The notes under the pieces were generated by a model. It was not told the origin of the DNA, ran no database searches, and saw only the letters and a program-made list of their open reading frames with translations. Below are positions 3,679 through 27,682 of a stretch of DNA of 56,067 nt, piece after piece (the first letter of the stretch is position 1; every line of letters starts with the position of its first letter). The translations under genes and the position numbers were made by a program. The stretch comes from an uncultured Oscillospiraceae bacterium (lineage in GTDB: Bacteria > Bacillota > Clostridia > Oscillospirales > Oscillospiraceae): contig CAZEPQ010000001.1 in the NCBI GenBank assembly GCA_964514175.1, positions 1-56,067 on the forward strand. Reading direction: 5' to 3'.

Positions 3679-3691
3679 TATGATGCTTCCC

Positions 3692-13431: not shown

Positions 13432-15477
13432 TTATGGCAGGATCATTAGGTTTCCACAATAGGTTTTACCGGGAGTGATCTCAACGGCAGTACCGTCCAC
13501 ATACATTTTGCCGTTGATCTTACAGTCCGCACCGAGCTCCAGACGGCTGAGGTAGGATACCTTCGTGGGACTCCATGTGCTCTTGTTCTCCAGAACAAGG
13601 ATCATTCCGTTGCTTACTGTGGGCGCAGGCTCCGCCGCGACATTACCAATTTCGTAGTAAGTGTCCTGTGTGATTTGCTGGCCCGGGGCAACGTTGATAT
13701 GGAACTGTGTCGCGGAAGAAATGCAGCCGTGAATCTGAACCGCATCGCCATGTACGCACAGATTTTGGCCGACCTTCCAACGGGAGTTATAAATGTCCCC
13801 CTGCAATGCCATGTCTGCAAACCGGACGTGCAGGGTGTATTCGGCGTCCGGATCAGAGACGTCCAGATCGGTTTTTACAGGGATCACCTCAGGAATCGTG
13901 AAGCCTGTGAGATTTGGATTACCTGCATCGTCACTTTCCATCAGGTGCAGCAGTACGCCATTTTCGCTGGAAAGCTTTGCACCGGAAGCCTGAATCCTTG
14001 TGGTGACCTCTTTCCCGGGCATGCTCTTGATCAGGAATACTGCCTGCCCGCTGTGAAACTCGGTTCCGGGTTCAAGGGTACAGTGGCCGCCCTGATTGCT
14101 GTGAATAAGGACTGCATTTTTTCGGGCATGAATCACTGTGGGAGCGTTGCGGCGATCCTCCGGGATTTCCGGATAGAGCTTGCCTGTATTTTCTTCGCTA
14201 GCAGGACCGAAGGTGCTTCCACAGAAGCCGCCGCCGATGACAACACCGTAGCTGGGAACAGTGATGGTTGTTCCGTAGAAGTAATCCTCCACACCCATAT
14301 CGCAATAGGCACCGTAGCCGCTTTCTCCGGTGATTGTGGCGGTTGTGTTGATGCAGGTCAGCTTTGATCCACGCCAGGAACCGTCGGTGGATAAAGCACC
14401 CCAGTTTTCGCTGAAAATATCGCAGTTGAGATATGTGCCGTTTGCCCATTCCAGCAGATTTGTGGTACGAAGATTTCCTTTGAGTCCCAGCGGCCAGGGG
14501 ACCTTGTTCATAACACCCACCGGGAAATCCGTGGTTGGGCCATCGTGGCCGTGGATCGTTACATTCTTTATCAGTGCGCTACAGTGACCACCAAGCCAGA
14601 TACCGGTACGGATAGAGCCAATGGTGTCAATCCGGGCGCCGTCTACGATGACTTCAGAGTCTCCGGTGACCATGATGCCAGCACCGTAGCCCGCAAAGTC
14701 GTCTCCGCCGTGACCATCCAAATCCAGCGTGGTGTTTTTTAATTCATATCTGGAGTTGTCGATTACGATGGGATTGAAGTAATCGTTGTGGGAGTGTATG
14801 ACCAAATTCTGGGACTGATCTGCATCGAATCTACCGTCGCAAATTGCCGCATTGACAGAACTACTTCCCACCTTTCCGTCCTGGATACAAAGGGCGGTCC
14901 GGGCCTCATACATATCAAACATGTGTGTAATCTCGTAGCTGGGGACAACAGAGAAACAGACATTTCCGGTGTAGGTTTTCCCGGCCTCAATCCGGGTTTC
15001 GATGCCGTCAACCGTCAGCGTTACCTGCTTGCCGGCAGGGGCAGCAATAAAGTGATTCTCCGGAACGGTATACCGATCACAGCAGAAAGAATCCTGCAGC
15101 AGAATCAGCCCCTGCTTCTGCATTTCGTCATAGCAAATTCCGGCGGCTTCATCCCGGGTCATTTCCCCTTGTGGCATGCGAAATTCTGGCAGAAGCAGCC
15201 GGACGGCAGCTTCCATGGCGGGGATGTCGGCAGGGGCTTCCGGAGCAAACTGATACGCCTCTCCTGCTTTGATCGCAGAGATCAACTTGAAATTGTACAG
15301 GAACCTGGCAGCCTCTTTGTTTTTGATCTGCGGATAGTCCTTGAGCACGTCTAGCTTTGCCGGCGGTACCGGCGGAGCGCCGGGCGGAATCATGGGACCG
15401 TCTCCCATAACGCCGCATCCGCCTGCGGCAAAGAGCATTGCGGCGCGGAGTATACGAAACAATCGTTTTTTCTTCAT
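13432..15477 (-). CDS. secreted/lipoprotein-like parallel beta-helix repeat protein, paralog P1 (681 aa), function unknown
   Basis: N-terminal MKKKRLFRILRAAMLFAAGGCG is a signal with a weak lipobox. Periodic Gly/Asn/Thr-rich ~22-25 aa repeats. LDGHGGDDFAGYGAGIMV motif is shared with the protein at 38788-40245. AAGGAGG RBS. Confidence 0.55.
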   Translation of the reverse strand: MKKKRLFRILRAAMLFAAGGCGVMGDGPMIPPGAPPVPPAKLDVLKDYPQIKNKEAARFLYNFKLISAIKAGEAYQFAPEAPADIPAMEAAVRLLLPEFRMPQGEMTRDEAAGICYDEMQKQGLILLQDSFCCDRYTVPENHFIAAPAGKQVTLTVDGIETRIEAGKTYTGNVCFSVVPSYEITHMFDMYEARTALCIQDGKVGSSSVNAAICDGRFDADQSQNLVIHSHNDYFNPIVIDNSRYELKNTTLDLDGHGGDDFAGYGAGIMVTGDSEVIVDGARIDTIGSIRTGIWLGGHCSALIKNVTIHGHDGPTTDFPVGVMNKVPWPLGLKGNLRTTNLLEWANGTYLNCDIFSENWGALSTDGSWRGSKLTCINTTATITGESGYGAYCDMGVEDYFYGTTITVPSYGVVIGGGFCGSTFGPASEENTGKLYPEIPEDRRNAPTVIHARKNAVLIHSNQGGHCTLEPGTEFHSGQAVFLIKSMPGKEVTTRIQASGAKLSSENGVLLHLMESDDAGNPNLTGFTIPEVIPVKTDLDVSDPDAEYTLHVRFADMALQGDIYNSRWKVGQNLCVHGDAVQIHGCISSATQFHINVAPGQQITQDTYYEIGNVAAEPAPTVSNGMILVLENKSTWSPTKVSYLSRLELGADCKINGKMYVDGTAVEITPGKTYCGNLMILP

Positions 15478-15596
15478 TATAGTCCTCCTTTTAATTTAAT
15501 TATAGCAAACCCTGTTTCATTTGTATTTGTTCTGTGATACAATAATTAAGGAGAATCCGATAAATTATTGTGACCGCAGACCAAGGAGGGGTAGGG

Positions 15597-16793
15597 ATGC
15601 TGAAAGAGAAGCAACTGGCGCTGTACCGCGCACTAAACTTTGAAAACCTCGAACAGCTTTTGACCTGCGCAAAAGAAAACTTTGATGACAGCGTGTATAT
15701 ATTGGACGGAAATCTAAACCCGCTTCTGGCAAGTCAGATTCTGGCCATAGAGCAAGATCGACCTCTGATCCGAAAACTGCATCCCCTGGACAGAATGTCC
15801 CCGCATCAGCCCGTTGTGGAAACTGACCGGGATGGACGGAAATGGATCATTGGCGCGGTATATCGGCAGAGCATTCCGGTGATCATTGTTGCGGCCTATC
15901 GATGTGATAGCTGGGACAAGGATTGTCTTCCGCTTTGCCATACCCTACTTGAAACGTTGGATCTGTGGCTTTCGGCGCAAAGTCCGAGGAATATGCTGTA
16001 CAGAAGGACAAGCAGTGTGTATATTAATTTCTTCACAGAGCTTCTGTATGAGAAAATCGTCAATCGGGACCTGCTACATCAGCGACTGCAGCAGATGTCC
16101 TTCACGCCTCCGGAAGAATTCTGTATCATGCTGATTGACTTTCAGGCCCATGAGACTATGGATGTCTCCTCTGCCCTTGCGGCTGAATTTGTAACGGAGC
16201 TGCTGGATTGTCCCATGTTCTGTTTTCACAACAATAACTTGATATTCCTGGTGGATACCACCACAAAAGCCCCGTGGAGAGATGAAATTGAGAAAGATCT
16301 GAGTATGCGTCTGTCCCGCTTCGGGCTGCAAGCCAGTTGCAGCCTCAGCTGTACCGATCTGTTCCTGATTCCAAATGCCTTTTCAGATGCCCAACGGACA
16401 CTGGATCTGGGACGCCGTCTGCGACCGGAGGTGGAACTGTACTTTGCTGCAAGATACATGACATACGTTATGTTGGATTTGGCCTCGCAGCAGTTGACCA
16501 TCACAAAGAGTATCAACCCTGCTATGCTGACGATTCTGGAATATGATCGGAAACATGGAACCAATCTTATGATGACGCTGTATGCCTATCTCAGACATAT
16601 GCGCAATCCCGAAGCAGCGGCCAGACAACTAAAAATACATAAGAACACGTTCTATTACAGAATGGGGATCATCAGGCAGTTTCTGGATGCTCCCTCTCTG
16701 GATGACGGAGAGATGATCATGCAGCTGATGATGTCTTTCCACATTATGTTTTTCAACGGTATGATCTCTCCACTGCCAGATTCCAATATTTGA
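15597..16793 (+). CDS. PucR/CdaR-family transcriptional regulator
   Basis: C-terminal PucR-type HTH LYAYLRHMRNPEAAARQLKIHKNTFYYRMGIIRQFL. AGGAGG sits upstream of the ATG at 15597. Divergent from the beta-helix operon. Confidence 0.75.
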   Translation: MLKEKQLALYRALNFENLEQLLTCAKENFDDSVYILDGNLNPLLASQILAIEQDRPLIRKLHPLDRMSPHQPVVETDRDGRKWIIGAVYRQSIPVIIVAAYRCDSWDKDCLPLCHTLLETLDLWLSAQSPRNMLYRRTSSVYINFFTELLYEKIVNRDLLHQRLQQMSFTPPEEFCIMLIDFQAHETMDVSSALAAEFVTELLDCPMFCFHNNNLIFLVDTTTKAPWRDEIEKDLSMRLSRFGLQASCSLSCTDLFLIPNAFSDAQRTLDLGRRLRPEVELYFAARYMTYVMLDLASQQLTITKSINPAMLTILEYDRKHGTNLMMTLYAYLRHMRNPEAAARQLKIHKNTFYYRMGIIRQFLDAPSLDDGEMIMQLMMSFHIMFFNGMISPLPDSNI

Positions 16794-16796
16794 AAC

Positions 16797-16835
16797 AAAC
16801 AGACCGTTCTGACTGTGTGTCGGAACGGTCTGTTT
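16797..16835 (+). terminator. hairpin terminator after the PucR gene
   Basis: 13-bp stem aaacagaccgttc / gaacggtctgttt directly after the stop codon. Short T tract. Confidence 0.5.
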
Positions 16836-17368
16836 GAATGACGGGCGGAGCCGGAGGCCTAGACGGAAAACCTAGGGGTATCTGATGTCAGAATCAACCT
16901 GTGCGGTCAAAGCCGAATACCGACTTTTCAAATTTATGATGTTGAAAAACAGCAAAGAAGATATTTTGACCCCTCCCATGACCAATAGTCACGGACTTCC
17001 AACGCACGCTTACGCGTGAATGCCTGCTTTAGGCAGGCGGACTACCTTTCCACCGTACGACCTCAACTCAGTAGCTGACAGGTTTCCGCCGCCAACACCG
17101 CATTGAGGTTAACATAATATTTGCATAGTAACGTCTTATTTATTATCCATGGTTTCTATAATTTTCCTCAGATCATTTTTTGATTTAGGGCCAATTGTAT
17201 AATCAAGTTGAACATTGAATGGAAAACCCATAGGGGTCTCTCTCGTGGTAGAATGTAGTCGACCAAAACAACATCACCAAGGAGAGATTGCCCTATGGAT
17301 CAGTTGGATTATACTCCAAAACCGGAGCGCGGTAAACACCTTTCCTAGCCATTTTTTAGAAACACAGC

Positions 17369-17412
17369 AAAAAACCTCGAAGCATATCAATCAAGAATGC
17401 TTCGAGGCTTTT
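17369..17412 (-). terminator. rho-independent terminator of the minus-strand NTF2/SBP/OYE operon
   Basis: 11-bp stem cctcgaagcat / atgcttcgagg followed on the minus strand by TTTTTT. Lies 90 nt downstream of the OYE-like stop. Confidence 0.7.
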
Positions 17413-17501
17413 CCTGTCTAATTCTTAGCTACACCTCGGCTTCTGCTTCTGGCTGCAGCTCTCTGCTCCGAAATCCCCAGAACAGCGCTTTCCCGACTCC
17501 G

Positions 17502-19490
17502 TCAGATCTGGGCTGCGGCAGAGAAGGCCCCTCTTGTACATGTGTGAATATTCCCCACCCGATTGCAGTCGCCAATGGCAAAGAACTGGTCGGCACAACC
17601 GGCAAACGCTACGGCCTCCTGCTGTAAGGGCCGCATTCCGCCGCAGGCCACAACGGAGTCTCCTTCCACGGTCACTTCCACGCCATCTGCATCCAGATAG
17701 GTGACAGTCCGGTCTGTAACCGCCACAGTCTTCGCATGGGTAATCGCCCGAAGCTGCTTCTGCTCCCTAAGAGCATTCTCCAGCCCACTGTAATAGTGCG
17801 AGAACTGAGCGTCGGTTGCCAGGCGCTCCCGGCGGGTAAGAATCGTAACCTGATGGCCGCACTGGGCCAGATACAGGGCTGTCTCCGTGGCGGACTCAGA
17901 GCCGCCCACCACGATCACGTGGCTTCCAAGGGCAGCCTCCCCGCCGAAAACAGCTATGTGCGTCAGAACGTCCGCGGAATTCGCACCCTGAACGGCAGGC
18001 TTCTTGGGAACTGCACCGACTGCGGCAATCACCGCATCATAGCCCATGGCCTGAATTTCCCCAGGCGAGGCTTCTTTTCCAAGGTATACAGTGACCCCCT
18101 GCTTCTCCATCTGCTTCTCCAGGTATTCCCGGAATCGGCGAATGGGCCACTTGAACTTTGCGTAGTCCGCATGGAGCATTTGGCCTCCAAGCTTTTCCGT
18201 CTTTTCATAGAGGTCTACCAGATGCCCTCGTTTGCGACATTCCAATGCAGCCCACATACCGGCAGGACCGCCGCCGATCACAGCCACCCTCTTGGGTTCA
18301 GAGCTGTCCGGGATCATCCGGTCGATCTTATGCTCAAGGCCCATAGTCGGGTTGACATAACAAATAACATTATCACGGCAGTGGCAACGATTACACTTGA
18401 GACAGGGCACCACGTCCTCTCCCCGGCCCTGCTTAAGCTTTTCACCATACTCCGGATCACAGATAAAGGCTCTTGCCACAGCAATCAGGTCTGCCCTTCC
18501 CTGGGCAATACATTCCTCCATAAAGGCGGGATCCTGGAAGCCGCCGTTGGGAGCTGTAAGGATATTGATACCGGCCTTCTTAACGGCCTCAGAGTACCGC
18601 AGCGTCAGGGGTTCCTGCTCCTCGGTATAGTTCAGGCCCGTGGGATGGGCCAGATCCATATCCGGGGCACGGAGCTGCAAAATATCTACCAGGCCTTCCC
18701 AGCCCTTGCAGTACCCCAGGAAATCCTCCAGGGTATATCCGCCCAGTTCCTCACCGGAAACCTGGGCCTCAATGAGAAAGTCCTGACCGCAAAGTTCCTT
18801 CACCCGACCAAATACGGCCTGGGTCAAAGCCAGCTTGTCCCCATACTTGTCCGTACGGCGGTTATGCACCGGAGAAAGGGATTTGGCCAGCAGGGAATTC
18901 CCGTAGGACATATAGAAGCAGACCATGTCAAAGCCCATCTGATAGAATGCATAGGCCTTCTGGGCCAGCAGCTCCACCAGATGATCCAGTTCCTCCGTAC
19001 TTGCCACATGGGTCTTCATGGGCGGACCCATCATTGGACGCCCCGCCGGCATCTCTGACAGAGTCAGATTCCTCGGCTCAATGCCCATCATAGAAGCAGA
19101 TGCCAGAGAGCCATAGAAATGGATCTCGTCCGTCATATGGGAGTAGTATAGCTTACATCCCCGGGTCTCCGCCTCCAGGTTTCCCATGCCTGGGCCGCCA
19201 AAGCTGCCAACGCCCCAGATATCCGGGCCGGCAGGGCCACCGGGACCGGGGCCCATTCCTCCGCCGGCATCTCCAAAGAAGGGATCACTTTTCCAGTCGG
19301 CGCCCTGACAGGTCACCACCGCGGCCCCGGACCGGGCCAACTGGGCCATATGGGTAATCATTGCCTCGCCGGGATAGTTCTCATCTCCCTGGAATGCGCC
19401 GGAGACACTGCGGGTCACAAGCAGACGGTTTTTCAGCAGCCGTCCTCCCACCAGAATGGGAGAAAGCAAATTCTTATATTCAGGTGCCAT
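17502..19490 (-). CDS. atypical OYE-like / 2,4-dienoyl-CoA-reductase-type Fe-S flavoprotein (OYE1)
   Basis: N-terminal TIM-barrel OYE signature LLSPILVGGRLLKNRL. Cys cluster CLKCNRCHCRDNVICYVNP (4Fe-4S). VAVIGGGPAGMWAALE and VVGGSESATETAL dinucleotide folds. AAGGA sits upstream of the ATG at 19490. The ORF-track start at 19550 would overlap a hairpin. Confidence 0.85.
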   Translation of the reverse strand: MAPEYKNLLSPILVGGRLLKNRLLVTRSVSGAFQGDENYPGEAMITHMAQLARSGAAVVTCQGADWKSDPFFGDAGGGMGPGPGGPAGPDIWGVGSFGGPGMGNLEAETRGCKLYYSHMTDEIHFYGSLASASMMGIEPRNLTLSEMPAGRPMMGPPMKTHVASTEELDHLVELLAQKAYAFYQMGFDMVCFYMSYGNSLLAKSLSPVHNRRTDKYGDKLALTQAVFGRVKELCGQDFLIEAQVSGEELGGYTLEDFLGYCKGWEGLVDILQLRAPDMDLAHPTGLNYTEEQEPLTLRYSEAVKKAGINILTAPNGGFQDPAFMEECIAQGRADLIAVARAFICDPEYGEKLKQGRGEDVVPCLKCNRCHCRDNVICYVNPTMGLEHKIDRMIPDSSEPKRVAVIGGGPAGMWAALECRKRGHLVDLYEKTEKLGGQMLHADYAKFKWPIRRFREYLEKQMEKQGVTVYLGKEASPGEIQAMGYDAVIAAVGAVPKKPAVQGANSADVLTHIAVFGGEAALGSHVIVVGGSESATETALYLAQCGHQVTILTRRERLATDAQFSHYYSGLENALREQKQLRAITHAKTVAVTDRTVTYLDADGVEVTVEGDSVVACGGMRPLQQEAVAFAGCADQFFAIGDCNRVGNIHTCTRGAFSAAAQI

Positions 19491-19504
19491 ATTCTCGTCC
19501 TTTC

Positions 19505-19541
19505 TGAAAATCCCCTCCGGGATTTGTATTCCCGGAGGGGA
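19505..19541 (-). terminator. intra-operon hairpin (partial terminator/attenuator) between the binding-protein and OYE1 genes
   Basis: 11-bp stem tcccctccggg / cccggagggga followed on the minus strand by TTTT. Confidence 0.5.
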
Positions 19542-19553
19542 CCGTTTCAACGA

Positions 19554-21299
19554 TCAGCGCTGGAGGTAACGGTCGTATGCGGCCTGATATACCTCGATGC
19601 ACTCCTGCATACCAAAGTCATCCATGGTCTGCTTATAGGTAGCAAAGCTTTCCTCCGTGAGGGGCTCGCCGCCGGTAATGTACTTCAGGGACATCTCTTC
19701 CACATAGGTGGTAATATCACCGATGTAGGTAGAGTATACAGAGCTTTCGTCTGCATTGAGAGATGCATAGCCGGGATAGTTGCAAGCGGTGTCGGAGTTG
19801 GTGAGCCAGTTCTTCCGAGCTTCCAGCTGAACCTCAGTGTAGTTGGAGTCGGTCTTGGCGTTGAGGATATAATAACCGCCGCCGTTGAACTCACAATATA
19901 CGGAGATCGCAATATCAAATGCCATGTCAGGGTTGTTTACAACCAGATCGGTAAACTGGGGATTGCCGTCGGCATCTCGCTCCCAGGACTTGCCTTCGAT
20001 GCCGTAGTTGGCCAGCAGGCAGCCTTCCTCGGTGTACCAGTAGTTACACCATGCCATGGCCAGTTCAGGATCGGAGCAGTTTGTGGAGATAAAGTTGCCG
20101 CCTCTGGTATCTACCTTGCTGGTAACAGTGGAGAAGTGGGTAGTTGCACCTTCTTCGCCGGCAGGCACAGGCAGACCGGAGATTGCGAAGTTGGGATCCG
20201 TAGAGGTCTCGCTGCTGTAGGAACGCATCTCATTGAGAGAGTTGAACCATACGCCAACCTGGCTGTTATTGACCATATCGCTGGGCGGGAACTGCTGAGA
20301 AGCAGACTGGGCAGCAAAATCGGAATAGAGCAGGCCCTCAGTAAACCAGCGGTTCATCATAGTCAGATAGTCATAGAAGCCGTCCTCATAGAAGCCATAC
20401 TTTACAGTATCGTCTTCCACATAGAAGCCGGGAGAAATGCCGTAGCCTGCAGTGGTTTCCACCACATAGCCAGCAGGATTGCTCCAGTAAGGAGCAGGTA
20501 CATTCAGCTCATTCTTGAACGCGATCAGAGCCTCTTCCAGTTCTTCATAGGTAGAGGGCATTTCCATGCCAACCGCATCCAGATAGTCGGTACGGATAAT
20601 CAGACCACCATTGACGGAACGGGCTTCGTCGTTAATTCCGCAGAAGGAGGGGATATAACCTGCATCCGTATGTACAGCCAGATTCACCTCTTCGTCGCTG
20701 TACAGATAATTGCAGTAATCGGGTGCAAATTCCTCCAGCTTGTCGGAAAGATCCATAATAATCTCGTCTTCCACAGCGCCTTCTACAGAGCCGGAATACT
20801 GGGAACCGAAGCCATAGATAATATCGGTGTAGTCGCCGGAGGCGATCATTAGCTGGAACTGCTCAGAGGCATTCACCAGAGAGAAGCCAACTACCTGAAT
20901 ATTCACGCCCACAGCCTCGTTAATTGCCAGATAAATTTCCTTATTGGATACATCGTCCAGGAAATTGGGCACAAAGGGCGGATAGCTGTACCAGTAGGTC
21001 AGGGTCTCAGAACCATCCGCTACGGGATAATTCAGGGAATCCAGCACCACAGGTCCTTCCTCTGCGGGTTCTTCCGCTACGGGCTCTTCCACCACGGACT
21101 CTTCCACGGGGGGAGCCTCTTCCTCGGGGGCCTCTGCAGTTGCTTCCTCTTCCACAGGAGCAGCTACTTCAGCTTCCTCGACTGTACTTTCCACCGCTGC
21201 GCTTTCAGGGGTGGACTCTGCCACGGATTCAGAGCTGCCGCAGGCCACCAGGCCAAAGAGCAGGCACAAAACCATCAGCAATGAAATTAGTCTCTTCAT
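19554..21299 (-). CDS. large extracellular solute-binding lipoprotein (ABC family-1), orphan
   Basis: MKRLISLLMVLCLLFGLVACGSS lipobox and an acidic linker EEAEVAAPVEEEATAEAPEEEAPPVEE. GGAGGAA lies 6 nt upstream of the ATG at 21299. Confidence 0.85.
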   Translation of the reverse strand: MKRLISLLMVLCLLFGLVACGSSESVAESTPESAAVESTVEEAEVAAPVEEEATAEAPEEEAPPVEESVVEEPVAEEPAEEGPVVLDSLNYPVADGSETLTYWYSYPPFVPNFLDDVSNKEIYLAINEAVGVNIQVVGFSLVNASEQFQLMIASGDYTDIIYGFGSQYSGSVEGAVEDEIIMDLSDKLEEFAPDYCNYLYSDEEVNLAVHTDAGYIPSFCGINDEARSVNGGLIIRTDYLDAVGMEMPSTYEELEEALIAFKNELNVPAPYWSNPAGYVVETTAGYGISPGFYVEDDTVKYGFYEDGFYDYLTMMNRWFTEGLLYSDFAAQSASQQFPPSDMVNNSQVGVWFNSLNEMRSYSSETSTDPNFAISGLPVPAGEEGATTHFSTVTSKVDTRGGNFISTNCSDPELAMAWCNYWYTEEGCLLANYGIEGKSWERDADGNPQFTDLVVNNPDMAFDIAISVYCEFNGGGYYILNAKTDSNYTEVQLEARKNWLTNSDTACNYPGYASLNADESSVYSTYIGDITTYVEEMSLKYITGGEPLTEESFATYKQTMDDFGMQECIEVYQAAYDRYLQR

Positions 21300-21322
21300 T
21301 AACAATTCCTCCATTCCTTAAT

Positions 21323-22219
21323 TTACAAACGGACGCCGCCCTTAACAATGGATGCCAAGGCAGAATACCGTTTTGTGATGTCGTTGTGGCCGGGAGCATA
21401 GGAATTCTCGTCGTCCAGGGTCTTGTAGGGCTCCGGCCAAGGCACCGTATTCTGAACAAGCTGGGTCATAGATGCATTGTTGTGCAGAGGACCCACATCC
21501 GTACAGGGAGGGCCTCCAAACTGTCCCCTGGGCTTCACGGGACGGAATCCGCCGGGGGCACCGCCCTGGCCTTCGCCGCCTGGGCCTGCATCCGCCTTCT
21601 TCTCTTCCTGGGGCGGAGGACCGAAACCGGGTCTGGGATGCACTTCCTCATCGTACATCTTCTGTCCCCAGTTGCTTGTTCCGTATTCCGATCCGACATC
21701 GGGGCACACATGCTCGTGGAAGTAGTACCACTTGCCATCCGTCTCATCGTAGGCAAAGTCAGAGCCATAACGTTCCCAGAGGAATCCGCCGTTACGGACC
21801 TTATTGGGGCTCATTCTGGCCATCATCGTACCGGGGGTCAGGTAGCAGCTTCTGCCGGTCTTTCCGTCCTCGGCCACCTCGATAACGCCGGAGGCCAGAC
21901 AGTGTAGGGCCGTGCAGCCTACGCTGCGTGCATCGAAGTAGGAAGCTCCCTTATAGTTCAGGATGTGGTTGCAATAGCGCTCGTAATAGCCCTCCTCAGG
22001 GTTAATAACGGAGCCAAACCAGACTTCGTCCCAGCCTACCATGCGTCCAAAGAAGTGTGCCCAGGTCACGTCTTCTCCGCGATACCAGATGGCGTCCCAT
22101 TCCTCCTTGGAATAGCCCATGCCGTGGGTGTATGCATGCCAGGCTTTGACCTGTTCGATTTCCTGAGCGCCGATTGCATTGTGCAGGCGCTGTTCGAAGG
22201 TCAGATTCTGATAGATCAT
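21323..22219 (-). CDS. NTF2-like (SnoaL_4-type) protein, subfamily C, copy 1, with Gly/Pro-rich segment
   Basis: GGGAGGG RBS before the ATG at 22219. IEVAEDGKT, WERYGSDFAYDETDGKWYYFHEHVCPD, GP-rich stretch GPPPQEEKKADAGPGGEGQGGAPGG, and tail PWPEPYKTLDD. Confidence 0.7.
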   Translation of the reverse strand: MIYQNLTFEQRLHNAIGAQEIEQVKAWHAYTHGMGYSKEEWDAIWYRGEDVTWAHFFGRMVGWDEVWFGSVINPEEGYYERYCNHILNYKGASYFDARSVGCTALHCLASGVIEVAEDGKTGRSCYLTPGTMMARMSPNKVRNGGFLWERYGSDFAYDETDGKWYYFHEHVCPDVGSEYGTSNWGQKMYDEEVHPRPGFGPPPQEEKKADAGPGGEGQGGAPGGFRPVKPRGQFGGPPCTDVGPLHNNASMTQLVQNTVPWPEPYKTLDDENSYAPGHNDITKRYSALASIVKGGVRL

Positions 22220-22232
22220 TTCGTTCCCTCCC

Positions 22233-23000
22233 TTACTTGTACAGGCCAATCTTATAGCAGGCAGGCTTTCCGTCTGCGTTGTAGGCCTTGGTGTTGTCGA
22301 AGGAGTAATAGGGTCGGGGCAGGCGCTCCCAGACGTCTACCCAGCCGTACAGAGAGTCATAAGCCACATCCCGGATCGTAGGATCGCCGCAGGCCTGTTC
22401 GACAATGTCTGCGCCCCAGGGAGCTTCGGGATCCAGATCGCCGTAGGACTTGCCGGCGGGGATAATGTGATCGTAGGTAATGAGCAGATGCCAGATCTTC
22501 CAGGTGTCATCCTCTTTTTTCAGATCCGCAAAGACTTTGGCAAAGGTAAAGTTGCTGTCAGAGCTGCCTTCGGCATCGCCCACACAGTAAAGACCGCAAT
22601 CGTAGCCGATATATTTGGCGGTAAGGCCGTCCCCTGCCAATTCAATGTAGGGCGTATTCATTGTGTGAACGAAGGATGCGCCATAGCCCAGGTTTTTCTC
22701 GCTGAGCTCCACGCCCTTCTTCTCATGGTACAGCTTCAGGTTGTCCACGCGGGCATCATACTGATCCTTCACATAGTGCTTTATGATATTCTCCAGGCCT
22801 ACGTAATAGCCGTTGTTATAGCCCAGAGACGCAGTTGCCAGATTTTCTTCCTTAGAGACCCAAAGCTCCGTGATGCAACGGCGGCGGTCATCGTTGGCGG
22901 TATAGTATGCATAGCGGTTTAAAAGATCCTTGATCTCTTCCTTGTCCCAGAGCCGCCAAACCTGCTCCTCAGGGGTCAAATGTAAATTCATTTCTGCCAT
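22233..23000 (-). CDS. NTF2-like (SnoaL_4-type) protein, subfamily B, copy 1
   Basis: EEIKDLLNRYAYYTANDD helix-1 motif, LWVS...TASLGYNNGYYVG, and DDTWKIWHLL terminal strand motif. AAGGAGG RBS. Confidence 0.7.
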   Translation of the reverse strand: MAEMNLHLTPEEQVWRLWDKEEIKDLLNRYAYYTANDDRRRCITELWVSKEENLATASLGYNNGYYVGLENIIKHYVKDQYDARVDNLKLYHEKKGVELSEKNLGYGASFVHTMNTPYIELAGDGLTAKYIGYDCGLYCVGDAEGSSDSNFTFAKVFADLKKEDDTWKIWHLLITYDHIIPAGKSYGDLDPEAPWGADIVEQACGDPTIRDVAYDSLYGWVDVWERLPRPYYSFDNTKAYNADGKPACYKIGLYK

Positions 23001-23014
23001 GGATTCTGCCTCCT

Positions 23015-23743
23015 TTACACGCTGTAGCTGAAGGTTTCAGCAAAGGTCTTGTATGGCTCCGGTACCCGAGGCGAGGGGGTAAAGGGGCGATCGGCCCGAT
23101 AGGTTTCCCGCAGGGTGCAGGGCTTTGTAGGAGCCGGGAACTGCAGGGAAGCCATCTCCGCAAAAGCGGGATCTACAGGCAGCGCTTCCGGCGTGTCCGT
23201 CAGATTGAGACCCTGGCGGCAATCCACTTCATGGAGGTCCAGCATATGCCAGATCTTCCAGGTGCCGTCCTCCAGGATAAAGTCCACGGCCCAATAGCTG
23301 AAATCCCAGAAGGAAACAGGGCCTGCTTCTGTGACCTTTTCCACCAGGCCACGAACCACCCAAAGTCCCTTGGCAGTCTGAAGATCGTCAGCTACCTCCA
23401 CCACCTGCGTATCTATGGGACGGTAGGATATCTGCCCAACGCCGAAGCATTCCTCGTCAGATTTATCCCCCAGTTTCTCCGGGAAGCGGGCCTTAATGAG
23501 TCGGCTTGCCAGAGCGATTTCCTCAGCCAGTGCGCTGTAATAACCTTTCACCGCCTCCTGGCCCAGATAATAGCCTTCATTGACACCAAGGCTCACATCC
23601 TCACGGCTGCTCCAGAATTTCGCCAGAGCGCCCTCCTGCTTGATGCAATAGCTTTGGGAATACTTACCCATAATGTTCTGGACCTCGCGGCGGATTTCCC
23701 AGCGGGTCAGAAGATGCTCCGCTGTAAAGTCTTTTTTTCGCAT
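23015..23743 (-). CDS. NTF2-like (SnoaL_4-type) protein, subfamily A, copy 1
   Basis: FWSSREDVSLGVNEGYYLGQEAVKGYY, GPVSFW, EDGTWKIWHML, and tail VPEPYKTFAETFSYSV. Confidence 0.7.
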   Translation of the reverse strand: MRKKDFTAEHLLTRWEIRREVQNIMGKYSQSYCIKQEGALAKFWSSREDVSLGVNEGYYLGQEAVKGYYSALAEEIALASRLIKARFPEKLGDKSDEECFGVGQISYRPIDTQVVEVADDLQTAKGLWVVRGLVEKVTEAGPVSFWDFSYWAVDFILEDGTWKIWHMLDLHEVDCRQGLNLTDTPEALPVDPAFAEMASLQFPAPTKPCTLRETYRADRPFTPSPRVPEPYKTFAETFSYSV

Positions 23744-23863
23744 GATATCCCTCCTAGTGCGTATGTAAAATACATCCAGTGAACAATATAATTATATATG
23801 ATGGAGGGGGGCCGAAAAAGAACCACAATTGGAGATTTCAAGCCAGAATTTGACTAAAGGCTC

Positions 23864-23892
23864 TTGAAGCCATCTGGAATTACAGGTATAAT
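23864..23892 (+). promoter_or_regulatory. sigma-A type promoter for the AraC regulator gene
   Basis: TTGAAG (23864-23869), 17-nt spacer, TATAAT (23887-23892). Lies 30 nt upstream of the ATG. Confidence 0.45.
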
Positions 23893-23921
23893 TACAGTGA
23901 CGCAAAACAGGAGGAATTCGC

Positions 23922-25244
23922 ATGGCTCAGGTAAGAAATTTAGAGGAAGAATGCCGCATTCTTCAGGCGGAAAATGCCCGGCTGCGGCAGGAGTGCCTGA
24001 AATATCGGCAGCAGGAACTAATGGAACATCTGCTCCGGGGAGAGTTTGTCTCCGGCCAGAAGATCCGTGCGGATCTCCACGAAGTAGGGATCGATCTGAC
24101 AAAGGATTCCTATATCGAATTGTATGTGAACGTACTTATGCTGCCCCCAGCCCCCGAAGGGCCCCCGGATGACATAGGGCTTCCCCCTGTGGACTTTAAA
24201 GCCATATATGAGGACGGCATCTCCGGTCTGATCCGGCAATGCTACCCGGATTCCTTTGCGGTTTCGGCCCGTTGCGGTTCCGGGATCGTGGCGATTTTGC
24301 AAATGGATCGAGTCTCCGGCGCCCTGCCGGAACAGATGGATCCCGGCAATTTCATAGATTCACTGAACGCAAAGGCCCTGGAATTGGCAGATGCCCTCAG
24401 CAGGGACCACGGAATCGAGGTCTTTGTGGCCATCAGCCGACCACATCACGGTGTTGACGGCATTCCCGATGCCCATCAGGAGATCCTGGAAATCGACAAC
24501 TATCGCGCGGTAATGGGAATCGACGTACCCGTACTCTGTTACCACGATTTCGAAATGGCAGAAGCGGACAATAACGGAGACTATACGATGCTGCGGATGG
24601 AGCAGCAATATCTCAGCAGCGTTGAGCTGGGGGAATACGAACAGGCCCGTCAAATCCTGCAAAGCATGATCGACCAGGAATTCCGCCATGCGGTCCCCTC
24701 GCTTTTCTCCCTGCGCTACAAGCTGTCTGCAAAGCTGGGCTTGCTTCTCATCACGCTTGAAAAGTTCCAGGAAAAAGAGCAGGTAGCGGTTTTTGACGAG
24801 GTGTTCCATCTTCAGAAATCCCTGACCCAGGAAGATCTGACTTTGGAGGATCTTCGCTCGAAAATAGATCTGATTTTCACCCATATCAAGGCATATACGG
24901 AGCAACAGAAAAATCCCAAATGGATGAATCCGCTGCTCAGCTATGTGGACGAGAACTATACCCGACCTGATCTCAACGTGGCATCCATTAGCGTGGTCTT
25001 TCAGCTCAATCCCTCCTATTTGACCCGGGAGGTAAAGCGCTGCACGGGCAGCAGTCTACTGGAGCTGCTGCAAAAGAAACGATTGGATCACGCCATAGCC
25101 CTCATTGACAGCGGTGCCAGCATGGCACAAGCCGCAACCCAAAGCGGCTTTGGCGATATTCGTTCCATGCGGCGTGCCTTCCAGAAATATGTGCAGGCCA
25201 CGCCTCAGCTATACTTCGATGAGCGCCATAGATCTGGGGAATGA
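23922..25244 (+). CDS. AraC-family regulator with long receiver-less N-terminal domain (AraC-1)
   Basis: 440 aa. C-terminal double HTH ...LNVASISVVFQLNPSYLTREVKR...AQAATQSGFGDIRSMRRAFQKY. The N-terminus has a coiled-coil-like LEEECRILQAENARLRQECLKYRQQEL. AGGAGG RBS. Confidence 0.85.
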   Translation: MAQVRNLEEECRILQAENARLRQECLKYRQQELMEHLLRGEFVSGQKIRADLHEVGIDLTKDSYIELYVNVLMLPPAPEGPPDDIGLPPVDFKAIYEDGISGLIRQCYPDSFAVSARCGSGIVAILQMDRVSGALPEQMDPGNFIDSLNAKALELADALSRDHGIEVFVAISRPHHGVDGIPDAHQEILEIDNYRAVMGIDVPVLCYHDFEMAEADNNGDYTMLRMEQQYLSSVELGEYEQARQILQSMIDQEFRHAVPSLFSLRYKLSAKLGLLLITLEKFQEKEQVAVFDEVFHLQKSLTQEDLTLEDLRSKIDLIFTHIKAYTEQQKNPKWMNPLLSYVDENYTRPDLNVASISVVFQLNPSYLTREVKRCTGSSLLELLQKKRLDHAIALIDSGASMAQAATQSGFGDIRSMRRAFQKYVQATPQLYFDERHRSGE

Positions 25245-25316
25245 GCGTTTCGAGGTCTGCATCCTGAAGAAAATCGGTGAAAGCTCTACTCTAAAAAACG
25301 CCTCTCTCAGTCAAAA

Positions 25317-25348
25317 GGACCTGTTGCAACGTTCGCCGCAACAGGTCC
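25317..25348. terminator. bidirectional hairpin between convergent AraC-1 and OYE2 genes
   Basis: 11-bp stem ggacctgttgc / gcaacaggtcc with T-rich flanks on both strands. Confidence 0.5.
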
Positions 25349-25468
25349 TTCGTATTCGGTTCTCTGTGAGATAAGGCTTTGTGAATAGCCATAAGCCAAT
25401 ACGTCTTGCTCCTTGAAGCCACGCCCAAAGGCTAGACTTTAGACATAGCCGCCCGGTTTTCCTGTTTC

Positions 25469-27424
25469 CTACAGCACCCTCAGGGCACCGAAATAAGCCG
25501 TATGGGTGGCATCATAGATGTTATTCCCGCCCTCGCAATCACCTACAGGGATGACACCCCGGGCATACTTCTCCTGAAGGGACTCCAACAGTATCCGCCG
25601 GGGCTTGACTCCCAGCGCTACGATGCAGGTATCCGCGGAGACCGCAGCCTGGCCATCCCGGGTCTCCAGAACCGCGCCGGTCCCGGTGAACTCTAGGATG
25701 CGATGCTCCGGCAGAAGGGTCACACCTTCATTCTTCAGGCACTGCATCAGATCCAGTCGAGGGAAATAGGGCATTCCGTCGGCAAACCGTTCCTCCGGAA
25801 GCAGATCGCAAACGGTCACATTGTGTCCCTCCCGGCGGAGGCTCAAGGCACATTCCAGGCCGGCAGAACCACCGCCACAGACCAAAATATCCTTGCCCAG
25901 CAGACTGTGGTCGGCCTCAGCGTCATGGAGCATTACCACGTTTCCGCCGTCAATGCCGGGGATGCCCGGACGGAGATATTCGGATCCAGTGGCAACGATG
26001 ACTGCATCGGGGCCGAAGGCCTCCACCATATCTGCGTTTACTTCTGTGTTCAGACGAATTTCCGCACCGCAGGTTTCGGCGGAATGGACCAGCCATTCAA
26101 GATATTTTTTCATATATCCCTTGCAGGAAGGCGCTGCCGCGTCAATGAGCAGACCGCCCAGCCGGTCAGAGCGCTCGCAGAGAATGACCTGATGGCCCCG
26201 CTGGGTCAGCGTCACAGCGGCGGTGATGCCTGCCGGTCCGCCACCCACCACAAGAACCTTTCTTGCGGCTTTGGGAAGGGGCAGTGCGCGAATGTCCTGC
26301 TCAAAACCGAGGGCAGGATTTACGGCACAGTGAATGGCCTTGCCCCGGGCGGAGTTGTCGATACAGCCCCGATGACACCGGAGACAAGGACGAATGTCCT
26401 CCTGACGTCCCGCAAGGCATTTGTCCACCATCTGATTGTCGGAAAGGTACGCCCGTGCCATGCAGATAACATCCGCCGCACCGGAGGCGATGACCTGCTC
26501 TGCCTCATCGATTGTACTGAAATTTCCTACGGTGGCCACAGGCTTTTTCACTCGCTGCTTGACTTTTCGGGCATATTCCACGTTGAGCATGGGTTCCCGC
26601 AGGAAGGTGGGCAGGGTGTAGATGCCTGCATCGTTGTAGACGATACCTCGTGAAACGTGAATCAGATCCACATATCCCTGTGCGGCTTCTATGAAGTCGA
26701 GAGATTCCTCCAGCTCCAGAGCGCCAGGGGTCATCTCCGTGGCAGAAACACGAAGTTCAATGGCTACCTTCGGCCCTACGGCCTCCCGGACAGCCTGGAT
26801 GACCTCCAATGGGAAGCGGCGGCGGTTTTCCGGGCTTCCGCCGTATTCGTCCGTACGGAGGTTGCTCAAGGGAGAGAGAAACTGTCCCAACAGATTGTTA
26901 TGGGCAGCGTGAATCATCACCATGGGAAAACCGGCAGATACCGCATGCTGAGCAGCAGTGACAAACTGTTCCTTCACCCGTGCCATATCTTCCTCGTCCA
27001 TGGGGCGCACATTCTGGCTGCATCGGGGAAAAGGCACTGCTGAAGGCGCAATGGCAGGACCGGAGATCAGATGATCCTTGGCGCCTCGCCCGGAGTGATT
27101 CAGCTCCACGGACAGTACCGCACCGTTGTACCGGGCAGCCTCCGCAAGACGGATCATACCGGGAATACTGGTATGCCGGGCAATGTTCATCGTTGCCATA
27201 AAAGCGCCGCCCAGATCGTCATCCACCTGCGTGTCGCCGATGGTCACATAGCCAACGCCGCAGCGCGCCTGCATGGTAACGAATTCTACCATGGCATCGG
27301 TAACGGTGCCGTCAATGGTGCATTGATTGCAGACCATGGGCGCAAAGCCCAGCCGGTTCTTCAGCGTCACCGGCCCGATCTTCAAAGGTGAAAATACATG
27401 CGTATAGGATTGCTTCTCCAGCAT
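25469..27424 (-). CDS. OYE-like / 2,4-dienoyl-CoA-reductase-type Fe-S flavoprotein (OYE2, canonical)
   Basis: 651 aa. FSPLKIGPVTLKNRLGFAPM, HAAHNNLLGQFLSPLSNLRTDEYGGSPENRRRF, Cys cluster CLRCHRGCIDNSARGKAIHCAVNP, and VLVVGGGPAGITAAV plus ILVCGGGSAGLECAL folds. Confidence 0.9.
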   Translation of the reverse strand: MLEKQSYTHVFSPLKIGPVTLKNRLGFAPMVCNQCTIDGTVTDAMVEFVTMQARCGVGYVTIGDTQVDDDLGGAFMATMNIARHTSIPGMIRLAEAARYNGAVLSVELNHSGRGAKDHLISGPAIAPSAVPFPRCSQNVRPMDEEDMARVKEQFVTAAQHAVSAGFPMVMIHAAHNNLLGQFLSPLSNLRTDEYGGSPENRRRFPLEVIQAVREAVGPKVAIELRVSATEMTPGALELEESLDFIEAAQGYVDLIHVSRGIVYNDAGIYTLPTFLREPMLNVEYARKVKQRVKKPVATVGNFSTIDEAEQVIASGAADVICMARAYLSDNQMVDKCLAGRQEDIRPCLRCHRGCIDNSARGKAIHCAVNPALGFEQDIRALPLPKAARKVLVVGGGPAGITAAVTLTQRGHQVILCERSDRLGGLLIDAAAPSCKGYMKKYLEWLVHSAETCGAEIRLNTEVNADMVEAFGPDAVIVATGSEYLRPGIPGIDGGNVVMLHDAEADHSLLGKDILVCGGGSAGLECALSLRREGHNVTVCDLLPEERFADGMPYFPRLDLMQCLKNEGVTLLPEHRILEFTGTGAVLETRDGQAAVSADTCIVALGVKPRRILLESLQEKYARGVIPVGDCEGGNNIYDATHTAYFGALRVL

Positions 27425-27456
27425 AAAAACGACCTGCCTTTTCTAGGGTTTTCCTT

Positions 27457-27485
27457 ATTATAAATTCTGGACGGAAAGAAAGCAA
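27457..27485 (-). promoter_or_regulatory. sigma-A type promoter for OYE2
   Basis: On the minus strand: TTGCTT, 17-nt spacer, TATAAT. Lies ~30 nt upstream of the ATG at 27424. Confidence 0.5.
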
Positions 27486-27645
27486 GGGTACGACGGGGAA
27501 ATACTCCCGTATCATCTCGATACAGGGGTATCATATGGGGCTGAGATCGCCACGCTCTTCCTCTGCCTCGGGAAAACCTGAAAACCTCTCGCCTAAAGGC
27601 AAATAAGTGCAGCAAAAGCTCTGTCAGAAGGAACTTTCGTCACAC

Positions 27646-27682
27646 AAAAACCGTTGCCGGACTTTCGTCGGCAACGGTTTTT
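27646..27682 (-). terminator. rho-independent terminator after flavodoxin-like F2
   Basis: 14-bp stem aaaaaccgttgccg / cggcaacggttttt with a T-run on the minus strand. Lies 24 nt after the F2 stop. Confidence 0.7.

Follow-up and report, generated by a model that had tools for sequence, protein, structure and literature searches.

An AraC-associated operon of an uncultured Oscillospiraceae bacterium encodes three NTF2-fold proteins that are probably subunits of one enzyme, together with a binding lipoprotein and an unusual Fe-S flavoenzyme

The Oscillospiraceae are abundant in the gut, but few of them have been cultured, and a large part of their metabolism is known only by inference from genomes. 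The operon described here occupies positions 17502 to 23743 of a 56,067-nucleotide (nt) stretch of DNA from an uncultured Oscillospiraceae bacterium (GenBank assembly GCA_964514175.1, contig CAZEPQ010000001.1), which is referred to below as the window. It encodes three NTF2-fold proteins (A1, B1, and C1), a solute-binding protein (SBP) that is a lipoprotein (SBP1), and an iron-sulfur (Fe-S) flavoenzyme of the old yellow enzyme (OYE) type (OYE1), and it is divergent from the gene of an AraC-type regulator (AraC-1). An earlier note on this DNA, made from the sequence alone, had suggested a pathway of import, rearrangement, and reduction. The analysis presented here indicates that the A-B-C trio is a compact and easily recognized genetic unit, present in multiple copies that each tend to have their own regulator and often their own binding protein, and that its three products are probably parts of a single enzyme.

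Organization of the operon

The operon is encoded on the minus strand. A1 (23015 to 23743) is a class-A NTF2-fold subunit of 242 amino acids with an ordered C-terminal arm ending in the tip PEPYKTFAETFSY, as assigned by its AlphaFold2 (AF2) model, by Foldseek, and by BLASTP comparison of the classes. It scores 21.7 bits against the Pfam family SnoaL_4 (PF13577), just under the gathering score of 24 bits. The class-B subunit B1 (22233 to 23000; 255 amino acids) passes that score with 34.9 bits, and the B-family profile matches the lyase LdpA (2.8e-7). C1 (21323 to 22219; 298 amino acids), the class-C subunit, has no Pfam or NCBIfam match and was assigned by its BLASTP similarity to the paralogues B2 and A2 and by its AF2 fold; its paralogue C3 reaches SnoaL_4 with 31.4 bits. 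The start of C1 is the ATG at 22219, which has AAAGGAGG ahead of it and gives a protein of the same length as the orthologues. A TTG at 22249 was dropped as the start because the ribosome-binding site (RBS) and the orthologue length favor the ATG. SBP1 (19554 to 21299) starts at 21299 with the N terminus MKRLISLL...LVACG and is a 581-amino-acid lipoprotein of the family-1 solute-binding type (Pfam SBP_bac_1; LVACG lipobox) with a long acidic linker. OYE1 (17502 to 19490) is an Fe-S flavoenzyme of 662 amino acids, recognized by the Pfam domains Oxidored_FMN and Pyr_redox_2 and by matches in the PDB.

The gene order and coordinates given in the earlier note were reproduced by the listing and translation of open reading frames (ORFs). 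The intergenic gaps between A1, B1, C1, and SBP1 measure 14, 13, and 23 nt, within the range of 11 to 24 nt claimed there, and the gap between SBP1 and OYE1 is 63 nt long and contains a GC-rich hairpin (19505 to 19541, minus strand) followed by AUUUU. The hairpin is indeed stable (−30.8 kcal/mol; z, −4.8), but the T tract ascribed to it amounts to just four U's. The strong terminator at the end of the operon (17369 to 17412, minus strand) is, as claimed, a strong one, of the intrinsic type, in which a stem-loop (−30.3 kcal/mol; z, −7.4) runs into a six-U tract. The A-B-C-SBP-OYE layout repeats in orthologous loci, and the arrangement is by this comparison beyond chance.

Long ORFs on the opposite strand, such as 19350 to 20852 (plus strand), were set aside as shadow ORFs without homology support. 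Those at 17736 to 19058, 19350 to 20852, and 20924 to 21907 (all plus strand) span 327 to 500 amino acids and could mislead gene callers in this genome of 53% GC.

The A-B-C trio and its distribution

The window carries three trio cassettes, the first of which is the operon described above. Cassette 2 (42098 to 47177, plus strand) contains A2, B2, C2, a fourth unit named D2, and an SBP gene, with an AraC-type gene at 40664 to 41929. Cassette 3 (minus strand) contains A3 (approximately 51585 to 52310), B3 (50803 to 51570), C3 (49786 to 50790), and a CoA-transferase gene (48210 to 49517), with an AraC-type gene at 53211 to 54494. In an all-against-all BLASTP comparison, identities within classes were 38 to 44% (A-A), 30 to 37% (B-B), and 27 to 37% (C-C), and those between classes were 23 to 30%. 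A, B, and C are thus three old and distinct orthologous classes, not recent tandem copies. The C-terminal tip motif PxPEPYxT(F/L) is common to all three.

A scan of species-representative genomes with the A-family profile retrieved 147 loci, and 80 of these were fetched and their ORFs labeled by comparison with the window proteins. The loci are mostly labeled as uncultured Oscillospiraceae or Clostridiales metagenome-assembled genomes (MAGs) from the human gut and rumen, with several MAGs supplying three or four loci each. For the minority with Bacteroidales-type names, a mistake in binning or taxonomy is presumed. In 66 of the 80 fetched loci, 80 complete A>B>C trios were counted, and their order never varies. 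An exhaustive search of 1.84 billion cluster representatives with the C-family profile returned 672 clusters at an E value of ≤1e-3 and 83 at an E value of ≤1e-30.

Neighboring genes were counted within a 3-kb radius for the 41 trios with both flanks available. A regulator (LysR, AraC, PucR, or HxlR) was present in 63% of the cases and a binding protein in 44%, whereas a flavoenzyme (OYEa, OYEc, or FAD_binding_2) was present in 13 (32%), among them the very divergent trios of loci L016, L026, L056, L061, and L081. The gene directly 3' of C is most often an SBP gene (19 loci) and otherwise heterogeneous, with GntP permeases, MatE, aldo-keto reductase, hydrolases, and similar genes taking the place of any further consistent partner. 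What is conserved is the trio and not the cassette as a whole, and the partner genes of the trio vary.

Five loci are orthologous to cassette 1. Four of these (L002 to L005) repeat the divergent AraC gene followed by A, B, C, SBP, and OYE genes, and the fifth (L001) has the A-B-C-SBP-OYE order. C is the most conserved protein among them, with 90 to 93% identity to its counterpart in the window, followed by A (82 to 84%), B (79 to 89%), and OYE (71 to 85%). Identity to SBP1 is approximately 68% in L002 to L005 and only 41% in L001. No NCBIfam model covers A, B, or C, and no informative name is attached to them in the source records. Literature searches on NTF2/SnoaL proteins in gut Oscillospiraceae and on heterotrimeric dehydratases gave nothing relevant and no account of the trio. 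The A-B-C trio, without a description in Pfam, NCBIfam, or the literature, is an undescribed unit built of components that themselves come from known superfamilies.

Fold and catalytic residues

The AF2 models of A1 (mean predicted local distance difference test [pLDDT] score, 93) and C1 (pLDDT, 77) predict for both proteins the NTF2 α+β cone fold of the SnoaL_4-clade lyases. In Foldseek searches, both models retrieve LdpA as the best match, followed by LinA, BaiE, and scytalone dehydratase-like proteins, with a probability of 1.00 for LdpA, LinA, and BaiE. The match between A1 and LdpA (3e-11) covers about 230 to 240 alignment columns and includes the arm, and C1 also matches the fungal gallate decarboxylase. 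LdpA is likewise the only protein among PDB sequences that is matched by the A, B, and C profiles (5e-7, 3e-7, and 0.07, respectively). A long C-terminal arm is present in all three classes, and in C1 a disordered Gly/Pro linker joins the core to the arm tip PWPEPYKTLD.

LdpA (also LsdE), the erythro-DGPD γ-formaldehyde lyase of sphingomonads (PDB 8abt to 8abw), is a homotrimer in which an extended C-terminal arm contacts the adjacent monomer and stabilizes the trimer (PMC9942872). Its catalysis involves a His97-Asp40 acid-base dyad, protonation of the leaving hydroxyl by Glu143, and an oxyanion hole formed by Tyr35 and Tyr147, and the members of its clade perform cofactor-free dehydration, dehydrochlorination, decarboxylation, or deformylation of substrates in which a keto group or a phenol acts as the electron sink (PMC9942872). 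These positions were mapped onto the trio with a MAFFT alignment of 43 sequences per class, the SpLdpA fragment, and four single-unit outgroup proteins. The position of His97 is occupied by histidine in all 43 C sequences (H106 in C1), in 29 of the 43 B sequences (H112 in B1), and in all four outgroup proteins, whereas A has lysine or arginine in 33 of 43. The position of Tyr147 is tyrosine throughout C (43/43; Y151 in C1) and the outgroup (4/4), valine or isoleucine in B, and phenylalanine, valine, or tyrosine in A. At the position of Tyr35, C has histidine (43/43), B has arginine or histidine, A has tyrosine, phenylalanine, or methionine, and the outgroup has arginine or histidine. The residues at the Asp40 position are glycine or alanine in C, alanine or serine in B, leucine or isoleucine in A, and serine, alanine, or cysteine in the outgroup. 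B1 keeps the catalytic-position histidine and has no counterpart of the Glu143/Tyr147 pair.

The residues invariant in C comprise H28 and H32 (both on helix 1), H55, H106, E149-R150-Y151, H168-E169, D174, and H246, and C172 is found in 90% or more of the sequences. The invariant W-E-R-Y-G motif places a glutamate two residues ahead of the tyrosine. By this mapping, C has retained most of the ancestral catalytic residues and gained several, most of them are lost from A and B, and C is the probable catalytic subunit. The His-rich pocket of C could equally well be a metal site. The single-unit relatives, which have signal peptides and EF-hand motifs and include one from a Desulfobacteraceae MAG, give similar scores with each of the three classes and have the full set of motifs, which fits a homo-oligomeric ancestor.

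One complex or three enzymes

Several features of the trio bear on whether its members work together. A protein of 499 amino acids (P0312, from a cluster of 8 members) is a natural A-B fusion, with 242 bits for its N-terminal half in comparison with the A family and 255 bits for its C-terminal half in comparison with the B family. At its locus (L081), a C-class gene comes after the fusion with a 4-nt overlap, a B-C pair lies ahead of it, and the surrounding genes include those for FAD_binding_2, OYE, and SBP proteins. Further fusions of two units are P0358, in which a C-like unit is joined with one of the A/B-like type, and P0346. Two loci from rumen MAGs (L050, 7159 to 9274; L037, 1401 to 3516) have a second trio of paralogues directly upstream of A-B-C, 45 to 50% identical to each other, each unit of which keeps the catalytic histidine and a W-x-K-Y motif; groups of three are thus a habit of this family. 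The gene junctions of the trios in the window are 4-nt overlaps or gaps of 12 to 14 nt. Over 75 trios, the distance matrices of A, B, and C correlate with an r of 0.86 to 0.90 (the observed value was matched in 0 of 500 permutations), and the nearest-neighbor trio is the same between classes in 63 to 71% of the cases. This agreement across classes shows that trios duplicate and diverge as units.

A possible but unlikely alternative is that A1, B1, and C1 each form a homo-oligomeric enzyme of their own and independently catalyze three successive steps, of the isomerase, dehydratase, or cyclase type, before reduction by OYE1. Each class does have invariant polar residues of its own, the characterized members of the clade are single-gene enzymes, with LdpA itself homotrimeric (PMC9942872), and co-divergence with a fixed order would also be expected of a conserved three-step pathway. 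Independent enzymes are nonetheless hard to reconcile with the lack of the catalytic histidine in A and of the oxyanion tyrosine in both A and B, when the single-unit outgroup keeps these residues, or with the natural A-B and C-A/B fusions and the recurrence of units in threes. The arm-tip motif is present in all classes, and it is the arm that mediates the trimer in LdpA; the short overlaps and gaps between the genes are typical of complex subunits. A1, B1, and C1 are probably non-equivalent subunits of one hetero-oligomeric NTF2-fold enzyme, most likely a 1:1:1 heterotrimer. The three NTF2-like proteins to which the earlier note gave the rearranging step are, in the light of the histidine and tyrosine invariant only in C, the fusions, the fixed order, and the co-divergence, probably three such subunits and not successive enzymes, and rearrangement gives way to the elimination and lyase chemistry of the nearest relatives of the trio.

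The OYE1 flavoenzyme

In OYE1, a TIM barrel is followed by a cysteine motif for a [4Fe-4S] cluster and then by an FAD/NAD(P) domain, which is the architecture of 2,4-dienoyl-CoA reductase and BaiCD. Pfam Oxidored_FMN matches with 52 bits (cutoff, 27) over residues 160 to 357 only, and Pyr_redox_2 matches with 91 bits. The best PDB matches are 2-naphthoyl-CoA reductase (NCR; 6qkg, 1e-55, full length) and the Escherichia coli 2,4-dienoyl-CoA reductase FadH (DCR; 1ps9, 4e-36), both of which share the three modules. With 215, 243, and 247 bits against the NCBIfam models of BaiCD, BilR, and the mycofactocin OYE, for which the cutoffs are 825, 750, and 793, OYE1 is not equivalog-level to any of the three.

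Compared with canonical enzymes (DCR, NCR, and the neighboring OYE encoded at 25469 to 27424), OYE1 retains the RTDxYG motif, the GGGPAG motif, and the Fe-S cysteines C363, C366, C369, and C377, which are invariant in the OYE1 subfamily and in the canonical neighbor. The flavin-site motifs are different. The QxxHxGR motif of β3, which reads Q-I-(L/M)-H-T-G-R in DCR and NCR, is replaced by SASMMGIEPRN, the arginine of β5 is replaced by glutamine (IEAQ), the P-M of β1 is missing, and the HxxH/N pair of β4 (or tyrosine in DCR) is replaced by FYMSY (FYMSYGN). A Gly/Pro-rich insert at residues ∼73 to 103, absent from the canonical enzymes, is particular to the OYE1 lineage. Nothing in this comparison with DCR and NCR points to a CoA-ester substrate. 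In a large-database search, the replacement motifs FYMSY, SMMxIEP, and IEAQ were found to be conserved over a subfamily of members 42 to 49% identical in Firmicutes and Deltaproteobacteria, and on this ground OYE1 was rejected as a decayed pseudo-enzyme. OYE1 belongs to a distinct and strongly constrained OYE subfamily, atypical as the earlier note had it but not degenerate. This subfamily, with its rewritten flavin-site motifs, is undescribed.

The neighboring canonical OYE/Fe-S flavoenzyme (25469 to 27424, minus strand) is convergent to AraC-1, gives a full-length match of 417 bits to the BaiCD model (cutoff, 825), and is only 27.5% identical to OYE1. Three relatives of OYE1 from Deltaproteobacteria and related MAGs (P0463, P0480, and P0489; locus L084) have twin-arginine (RRQFL) signal peptides, which implies that they are exported Fe-S flavoenzymes, and one of them adjoins a flavodoxin/ferredoxin-domain protein. 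GGPGG inserts, at other positions, are also seen in the distant OYE relatives of L016 and L061. Scattered among the cassettes of the window are three paralogues of about 280 to 305 amino acids with an N-terminal flavodoxin-like domain (9122 to 10024, minus strand; 27706 to 28623, minus strand; 37817 to 38653, plus strand). The identity is 30% for the one pair that was compared; these proteins could be electron carriers for the flavoenzymes.

SBP1 and import

The nearest relatives of SBP1 with solved structures are AlgQ1/AlgQ2, Smon0123, and FusA, and SBP1 resembles, in its sequence, a large-cavity ATP-binding cassette (ABC) receptor of the oligosaccharide-binder type. The import step of the earlier note holds in that an extracytoplasmic binding lipoprotein is encoded, but the importer is incomplete, with no permease or ATPase gene in cassette 1 and no CUT1 permease in the window. 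Across the 80 loci, a BPD_transp_1 pair was found beside only 1 of 43 related SBP genes (L071). Because permeases are missing from the cassette and from beside nearly all of these SBP genes, import needs a translocator encoded elsewhere. The window contains four such orphan SBP_bac_1 lipoproteins (1966 to 3678, plus strand; 10086 to 11861, minus strand; 19554 to 21299, minus strand; 45474 to 47177, plus strand), which have 570 to 590 amino acids, are ∼30% identical to each other, and adjoin genes for enzymes, namely, GH3 glycosidases, an FAD_binding_2 flavoprotein, and the NTF2 trios. This suggests that many receptors share one translocator. GH3 glycosidase and sugar kinase genes lie at 471 to 8830 of the window, a context that hints at glycosidic plant compounds.

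Regulation

AraC-1 (23922 to 25244, plus strand) is an AraC/XylS-type regulator of 440 amino acids, with C-terminal HTH_18 (1.9e-15) and HTH_AraC domains and an N-terminal GGDEF_2-like domain in Pfam; the latter is presumably ligand sensing. Its orthologues, with 63 to 66% identity, hold the same divergent position in L002 to L005. A phylogenetic footprint was obtained by aligning the AraC-A intergenic regions of the window and these four loci. Across the five regions, both −10 hexamers, the RBS, and most positions of a block of ∼43 nt are invariant, and the flanks vary.

The AraC-1 promoter proposed in the earlier note, TTGAAG-17-TATAAT, was recovered at 23864 to 23892 (plus strand; 10 of 12 consensus matches in a scan). 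Its −10 hexamer is invariant in the five loci, and its −35 hexamer is TTGAAG, TTGCAG, or TTGCGG. The operon side has, as also proposed, a −10 element (TATAAT, 23791 to 23796, minus strand; invariant in the five loci) and no good −35, the sequence at that position being TTTTTC, which fits activator dependence. A second scan match, TTTACA-16-TATCAT (23769 to 23742, minus strand), was rejected because its −10 covers the start codon of A1 and cannot drive this gene, the TATAAT at 23796 to 23791 being the better candidate. The conserved block, GTCArATTCTGG-N4-AAATC-N3-AATwGTGG-N2-CTTnTTC (23812 to 23854, minus strand), abuts and overlaps the weak −35 of the operon and is the probable binding site of AraC-1, for which a class-II AraC operator is plausible.

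In the orthologous loci L001, L002, and L005, the junction between the SBP and OYE genes also has a hairpin, in the same place but unrelated in sequence. It is absent from L003 and L004, where the OYE gene begins ∼10 nt past the SBP stop codon, so that no separate OYE promoter fits in these two loci. Co-transcription of SBP and OYE is supported by this absence and by the adjacency of the two genes. The comparison suggests that the hairpin tunes expression instead of ending the operon, and the one at 19505 to 19541 is probably a partial terminator or mRNA-stabilizing element that sets the ratio of the upstream genes to OYE1. The single AraC-controlled operon of the earlier note is supported, at the level of sequence, by the tight spacing, the SBP-OYE junction of L003 and L004, and the conservation of the −10 hexamers, RBS, and block. 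No riboswitch or other known RNA was matched in Rfam at an E value of ≤0.1 across positions 15000 to 28000, and the intergenic repeats detected were only short and weak and were given no weight.

Proposed pathway and its alternatives

From the anatomy, conservation, A1 and C1 folds, residue patterns, fusions, and co-divergence described above, we infer an assembly, a chemistry, a coupling to the reductase, and a substrate class for cassette 1. With a confidence that is evenly balanced, we propose that it is an AraC-activated catabolic operon in which a single heteromeric lyase, free of cofactors and with its catalytic site in C, works with a receptor and a reductase to eliminate and then reduce. 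SBP1 would capture the substrate outside the cell and hand it over to an ABC translocator encoded elsewhere. A1, B1, and C1 would assemble with each long C-terminal arm gripping the neighboring subunit, by analogy with LdpA. C would supply the active site, with a general-base histidine, an oxyanion-hole tyrosine, and a nearby glutamate, and A and B, which have lost the histidine and the Glu/Tyr pair, respectively, would be scaffold or specificity subunits. The complex would eliminate a leaving group (water, alcohol, or similar) from an enolizable or phenolic substrate, probably bulky and plant derived, giving a conjugated enone or quinone methide-type compound. OYE1 would reduce this conjugated product, for a net reductive dehydroxylation that follows the same logic as BaiE with BaiCD/BaiH. 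AraC-1 would sense the substrate or product and activate the promoter with the weak −35 through the conserved operator block, and the internal hairpin would lower the expression of OYE1 relative to that of the upstream genes.

LdpA is the closest known protein. It shares with the trio the NTF2 cone and a C-terminal extension of ∼80 residues and acts by elimination on a phenolic substrate without a cofactor, and C has the equivalents of its His97 and Tyr147 together with a glutamate on the same strand. It differs in being a single-gene homotrimer, in contrast to three diverged paralogues that are always together, and its identity to them is only 13 to 20%. Its host is an aerobic sphingomonad, whereas the trio is found here in an anaerobic Firmicute. 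LinA, scytalone dehydratase, and the fungal gallate decarboxylase also have the same fold, a His-based acid-base catalyst, and substrates with a keto or phenol sink, but they are single-gene enzymes without the PEPYxT arm-tip motif and without a link to an SBP or reductase. A precedent for unequal chains is PhzA/PhzB of Pseudomonas phenazine biosynthesis, an NTF2-fold enzyme of two paralogous chains, one of them catalytically impaired. It differs from the trio in being a heterodimer of near-identical paralogues that carries out a condensation and belongs to another NTF2 subclade; PhzA/B structures are among the fold matches.

Several observations pull the other way. The aspartate partner of the dyad (LdpA Asp40) is present in none of A, B, and C, although the alignment of helix 1 is less certain, and the Tyr35 position is histidine in C, so that the chemistry may differ from that of the known clade members. 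The match of C Glu149 to LdpA Glu143 depends on the alignment, as HMMER introduces a gap to pair them and MAFFT offsets them by two residues, or one β register. A and B retain invariant polar residues of their own and may themselves be catalytic, and correlated divergence is equally expected from plain operon co-inheritance. OYE1 lacks several canonical FMN contacts and may differ from the canonical enzymes in flavin binding and in chemistry. About two thirds of the trios have no nearby flavoenzyme, and an Oscillospiraceae MAG (L085) has an AraC>SBP>OYE unit without a trio, with an OYE 49% identical to OYE1. The substrate class is suggested by the weak similarity to LdpA, the SBP type, the nearby GH3 genes, and the gut and rumen habitat alone.

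The reductase and the trio are separable modules, and two OYE1 subfamily members of greater distance are encoded away from any trio or SBP gene. Because trios often lack a flavoenzyme and the SBP-OYE pair occurs free of a trio, the coupling of elimination to reduction is not obligatory and could be coincidental in cassette 1. Of the reduction step in the earlier note, the presence of OYE1 in the same operon stands, but the reductase is an optional partner, found within 3 kb of about a third of the trios. The trio-free unit of L085, the many trios without a nearby reductase, and the hairpin that parts OYE1 from the upstream genes would all suit two independent modules, an A-B-C enzyme and an SBP-OYE pair, that respond to the same inducer family without acting in sequence on one molecule, OYE1 acting, for example, directly on the imported compound. 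This arrangement is improbable, given that genes of the OYEa type are found again next to highly diverged trios (L012, L016, L026, L040, L056, L061, and L073), that the A-B fusion locus L081 also has OYE and FAD_binding_2 genes, and that the SBP gene lies between C and OYE in one transcription unit whose layout is kept in the orthologues.

The trio might also be non-enzymatic, a cytoplasmic ligand-binding or carrier complex that holds a hydrophobic substrate for the reductase or reports the ligand to AraC-1. Many NTF2-fold proteins only bind (NTF2, Nxt1/Nxf1, and the CaMKII hub are among the fold matches), and A and B have lost catalytic residues. We consider this very improbable, as C, the most conserved protein, retains an invariant histidine, tyrosine, and glutamate at the catalytic positions together with further histidine, aspartate, and cysteine residues, the best relatives by fold and by sequence are all enzymes, and trios often have no reductase to serve.

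The closest functional analogy to elimination followed by reduction is the bile acid 7α-dehydroxylation pathway of Clostridium scindens. There, an NTF2/SnoaL_4 dehydratase (BaiE) forms a conjugated enone and OYE/Pyr_redox_2 Fe-S flavoenzymes (BaiCD/BaiH) reduce, all within one regulated operon of gut Clostridia. BaiE is a homotrimer without the long C-terminal arm, and the bai operon uses a proton symporter, whereas cassette 1 has an extracellular SBP. That cassette 1 belongs itself to a bai-type bile acid or steroid pathway, with BaiE-like dehydratases and a BaiCD/BaiH-like steroid reductase, could be argued from the presence of BaiE among the fold matches, from the scores of OYE1 and the neighboring OYE against the BaiCD model, and from the CoA-transferase of cassette 3 and the gut host. 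Those scores (215 and 417 bits) are, however, far below the equivalog cutoff of 825, no NCBIfam model matches A, B, or C, and BaiE, a chain of ∼165 amino acids against the 242 to 298 of A1 and C1, was unseen in the PDB sequence searches and ranked below LdpA in both fold searches. BaiB, BaiA, BaiF, BaiG, and any other bai genes are missing, the trio family is also common in rumen MAGs, and the SBP resembles oligosaccharide binders and has GH3 glycosidases nearby. Membership in the bai pathway was rejected, and its likelihood is slight. A role as the β subunit of a Rieske dioxygenase or as a SnoaL2-type two-component hydroxylase was also set aside as improbable, as oxygen would be needed, no α subunit is encoded, and the host is presumably a strict anaerobe.

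An extension of the proposed eliminate-then-reduce pathway can be formulated, although it is unlikely as a whole. A-B-C would form an obligate heterotrimer, the first among NTF2-fold enzymes, with a catalytic C whose His-rich site is maybe metal dependent and with two degenerate paralogues, A and B, whose arms and pockets set specificity. Its multiple copies would provide the uncultured Oscillospiraceae of gut and rumen with an oxygen-independent toolkit of benzylic C-O/C-C lyases for plant phenolics (such as lignans and lignin-derived dimers), often coupled to the Fe-S flavoenzyme subfamily for the reduction of quinone methide or enone products.

The operon logic has precedents, and the novelty lies in the invariant asymmetric trio and the rewritten OYE subfamily. 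If the trio is a heteromeric cofactor-free lyase, it would extend the NTF2 enzyme clade to asymmetric hetero-oligomers, would supply candidate genes where the anaerobic conversion of a dietary phenolic or steroid is still unexplained, and would pose a directly testable problem, as the three proteins are small, soluble, and co-expressible. Trio operons may help gut bacteria break down dietary plant compounds. The OYE/Fe-S subfamily with its rewritten flavin-site motifs is of interest for ene-reductase enzymology.

Other genes in the cassettes and their surroundings

In cassette 2, D2 (44544 to 45434, plus strand; 296 amino acids) lies between C2 and the SBP gene and is an NTF2-like protein with weak similarity to SnoaL_4 and a Gly/Pro-rich insert; a D-like gene is also present in L065. 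Gly/Pro-rich low-complexity segments of the type (GGPGGAP)n are shared by cassette proteins that have no other relationship. They are found in the C-class linkers, namely, in C1 (amino acids ∼198 to 228) and in the products of 43614 to 44522 (plus strand) and 49786 to 50790 (minus strand). They recur in OYE1 (amino acids ∼73 to 103), in D2, and at the N terminus of the unannotated protein encoded at 54753 to 55652 (plus strand). This last protein has 299 amino acids and no Pfam or NCBIfam match, and a homologue of it, labeled by BLASTP, is encoded just upstream of the trio in L031. In P0246 (471 amino acids), an extra domain fused to a C-class unit resembles, by eye, the C-terminal domain of the same protein, which may have a function together with the trio as an additional partner.

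Cassette 3 is closed by the CoA-transferase gene (AcetylCoA_hyd_C type; 48210 to 49517, minus strand), and a glyoxalase/VOC-fold gene (47352 to 47831, plus strand) comes after the SBP gene of cassette 2; in some cassettes, CoA esters may be the substrates or a step by an epimerase or isomerase may be required. The genes at 13432 to 15477 (minus strand) and 38788 to 40245 (plus strand) encode paralogues with 27% identity over ∼390 amino acids. The former has a lipoprotein-like N terminus, and only the latter has a match, weak and below threshold, to Pfam Beta_helix. Relatives of these two genes adjoin trios in L004, L022, L032, L054, L061, and L080.

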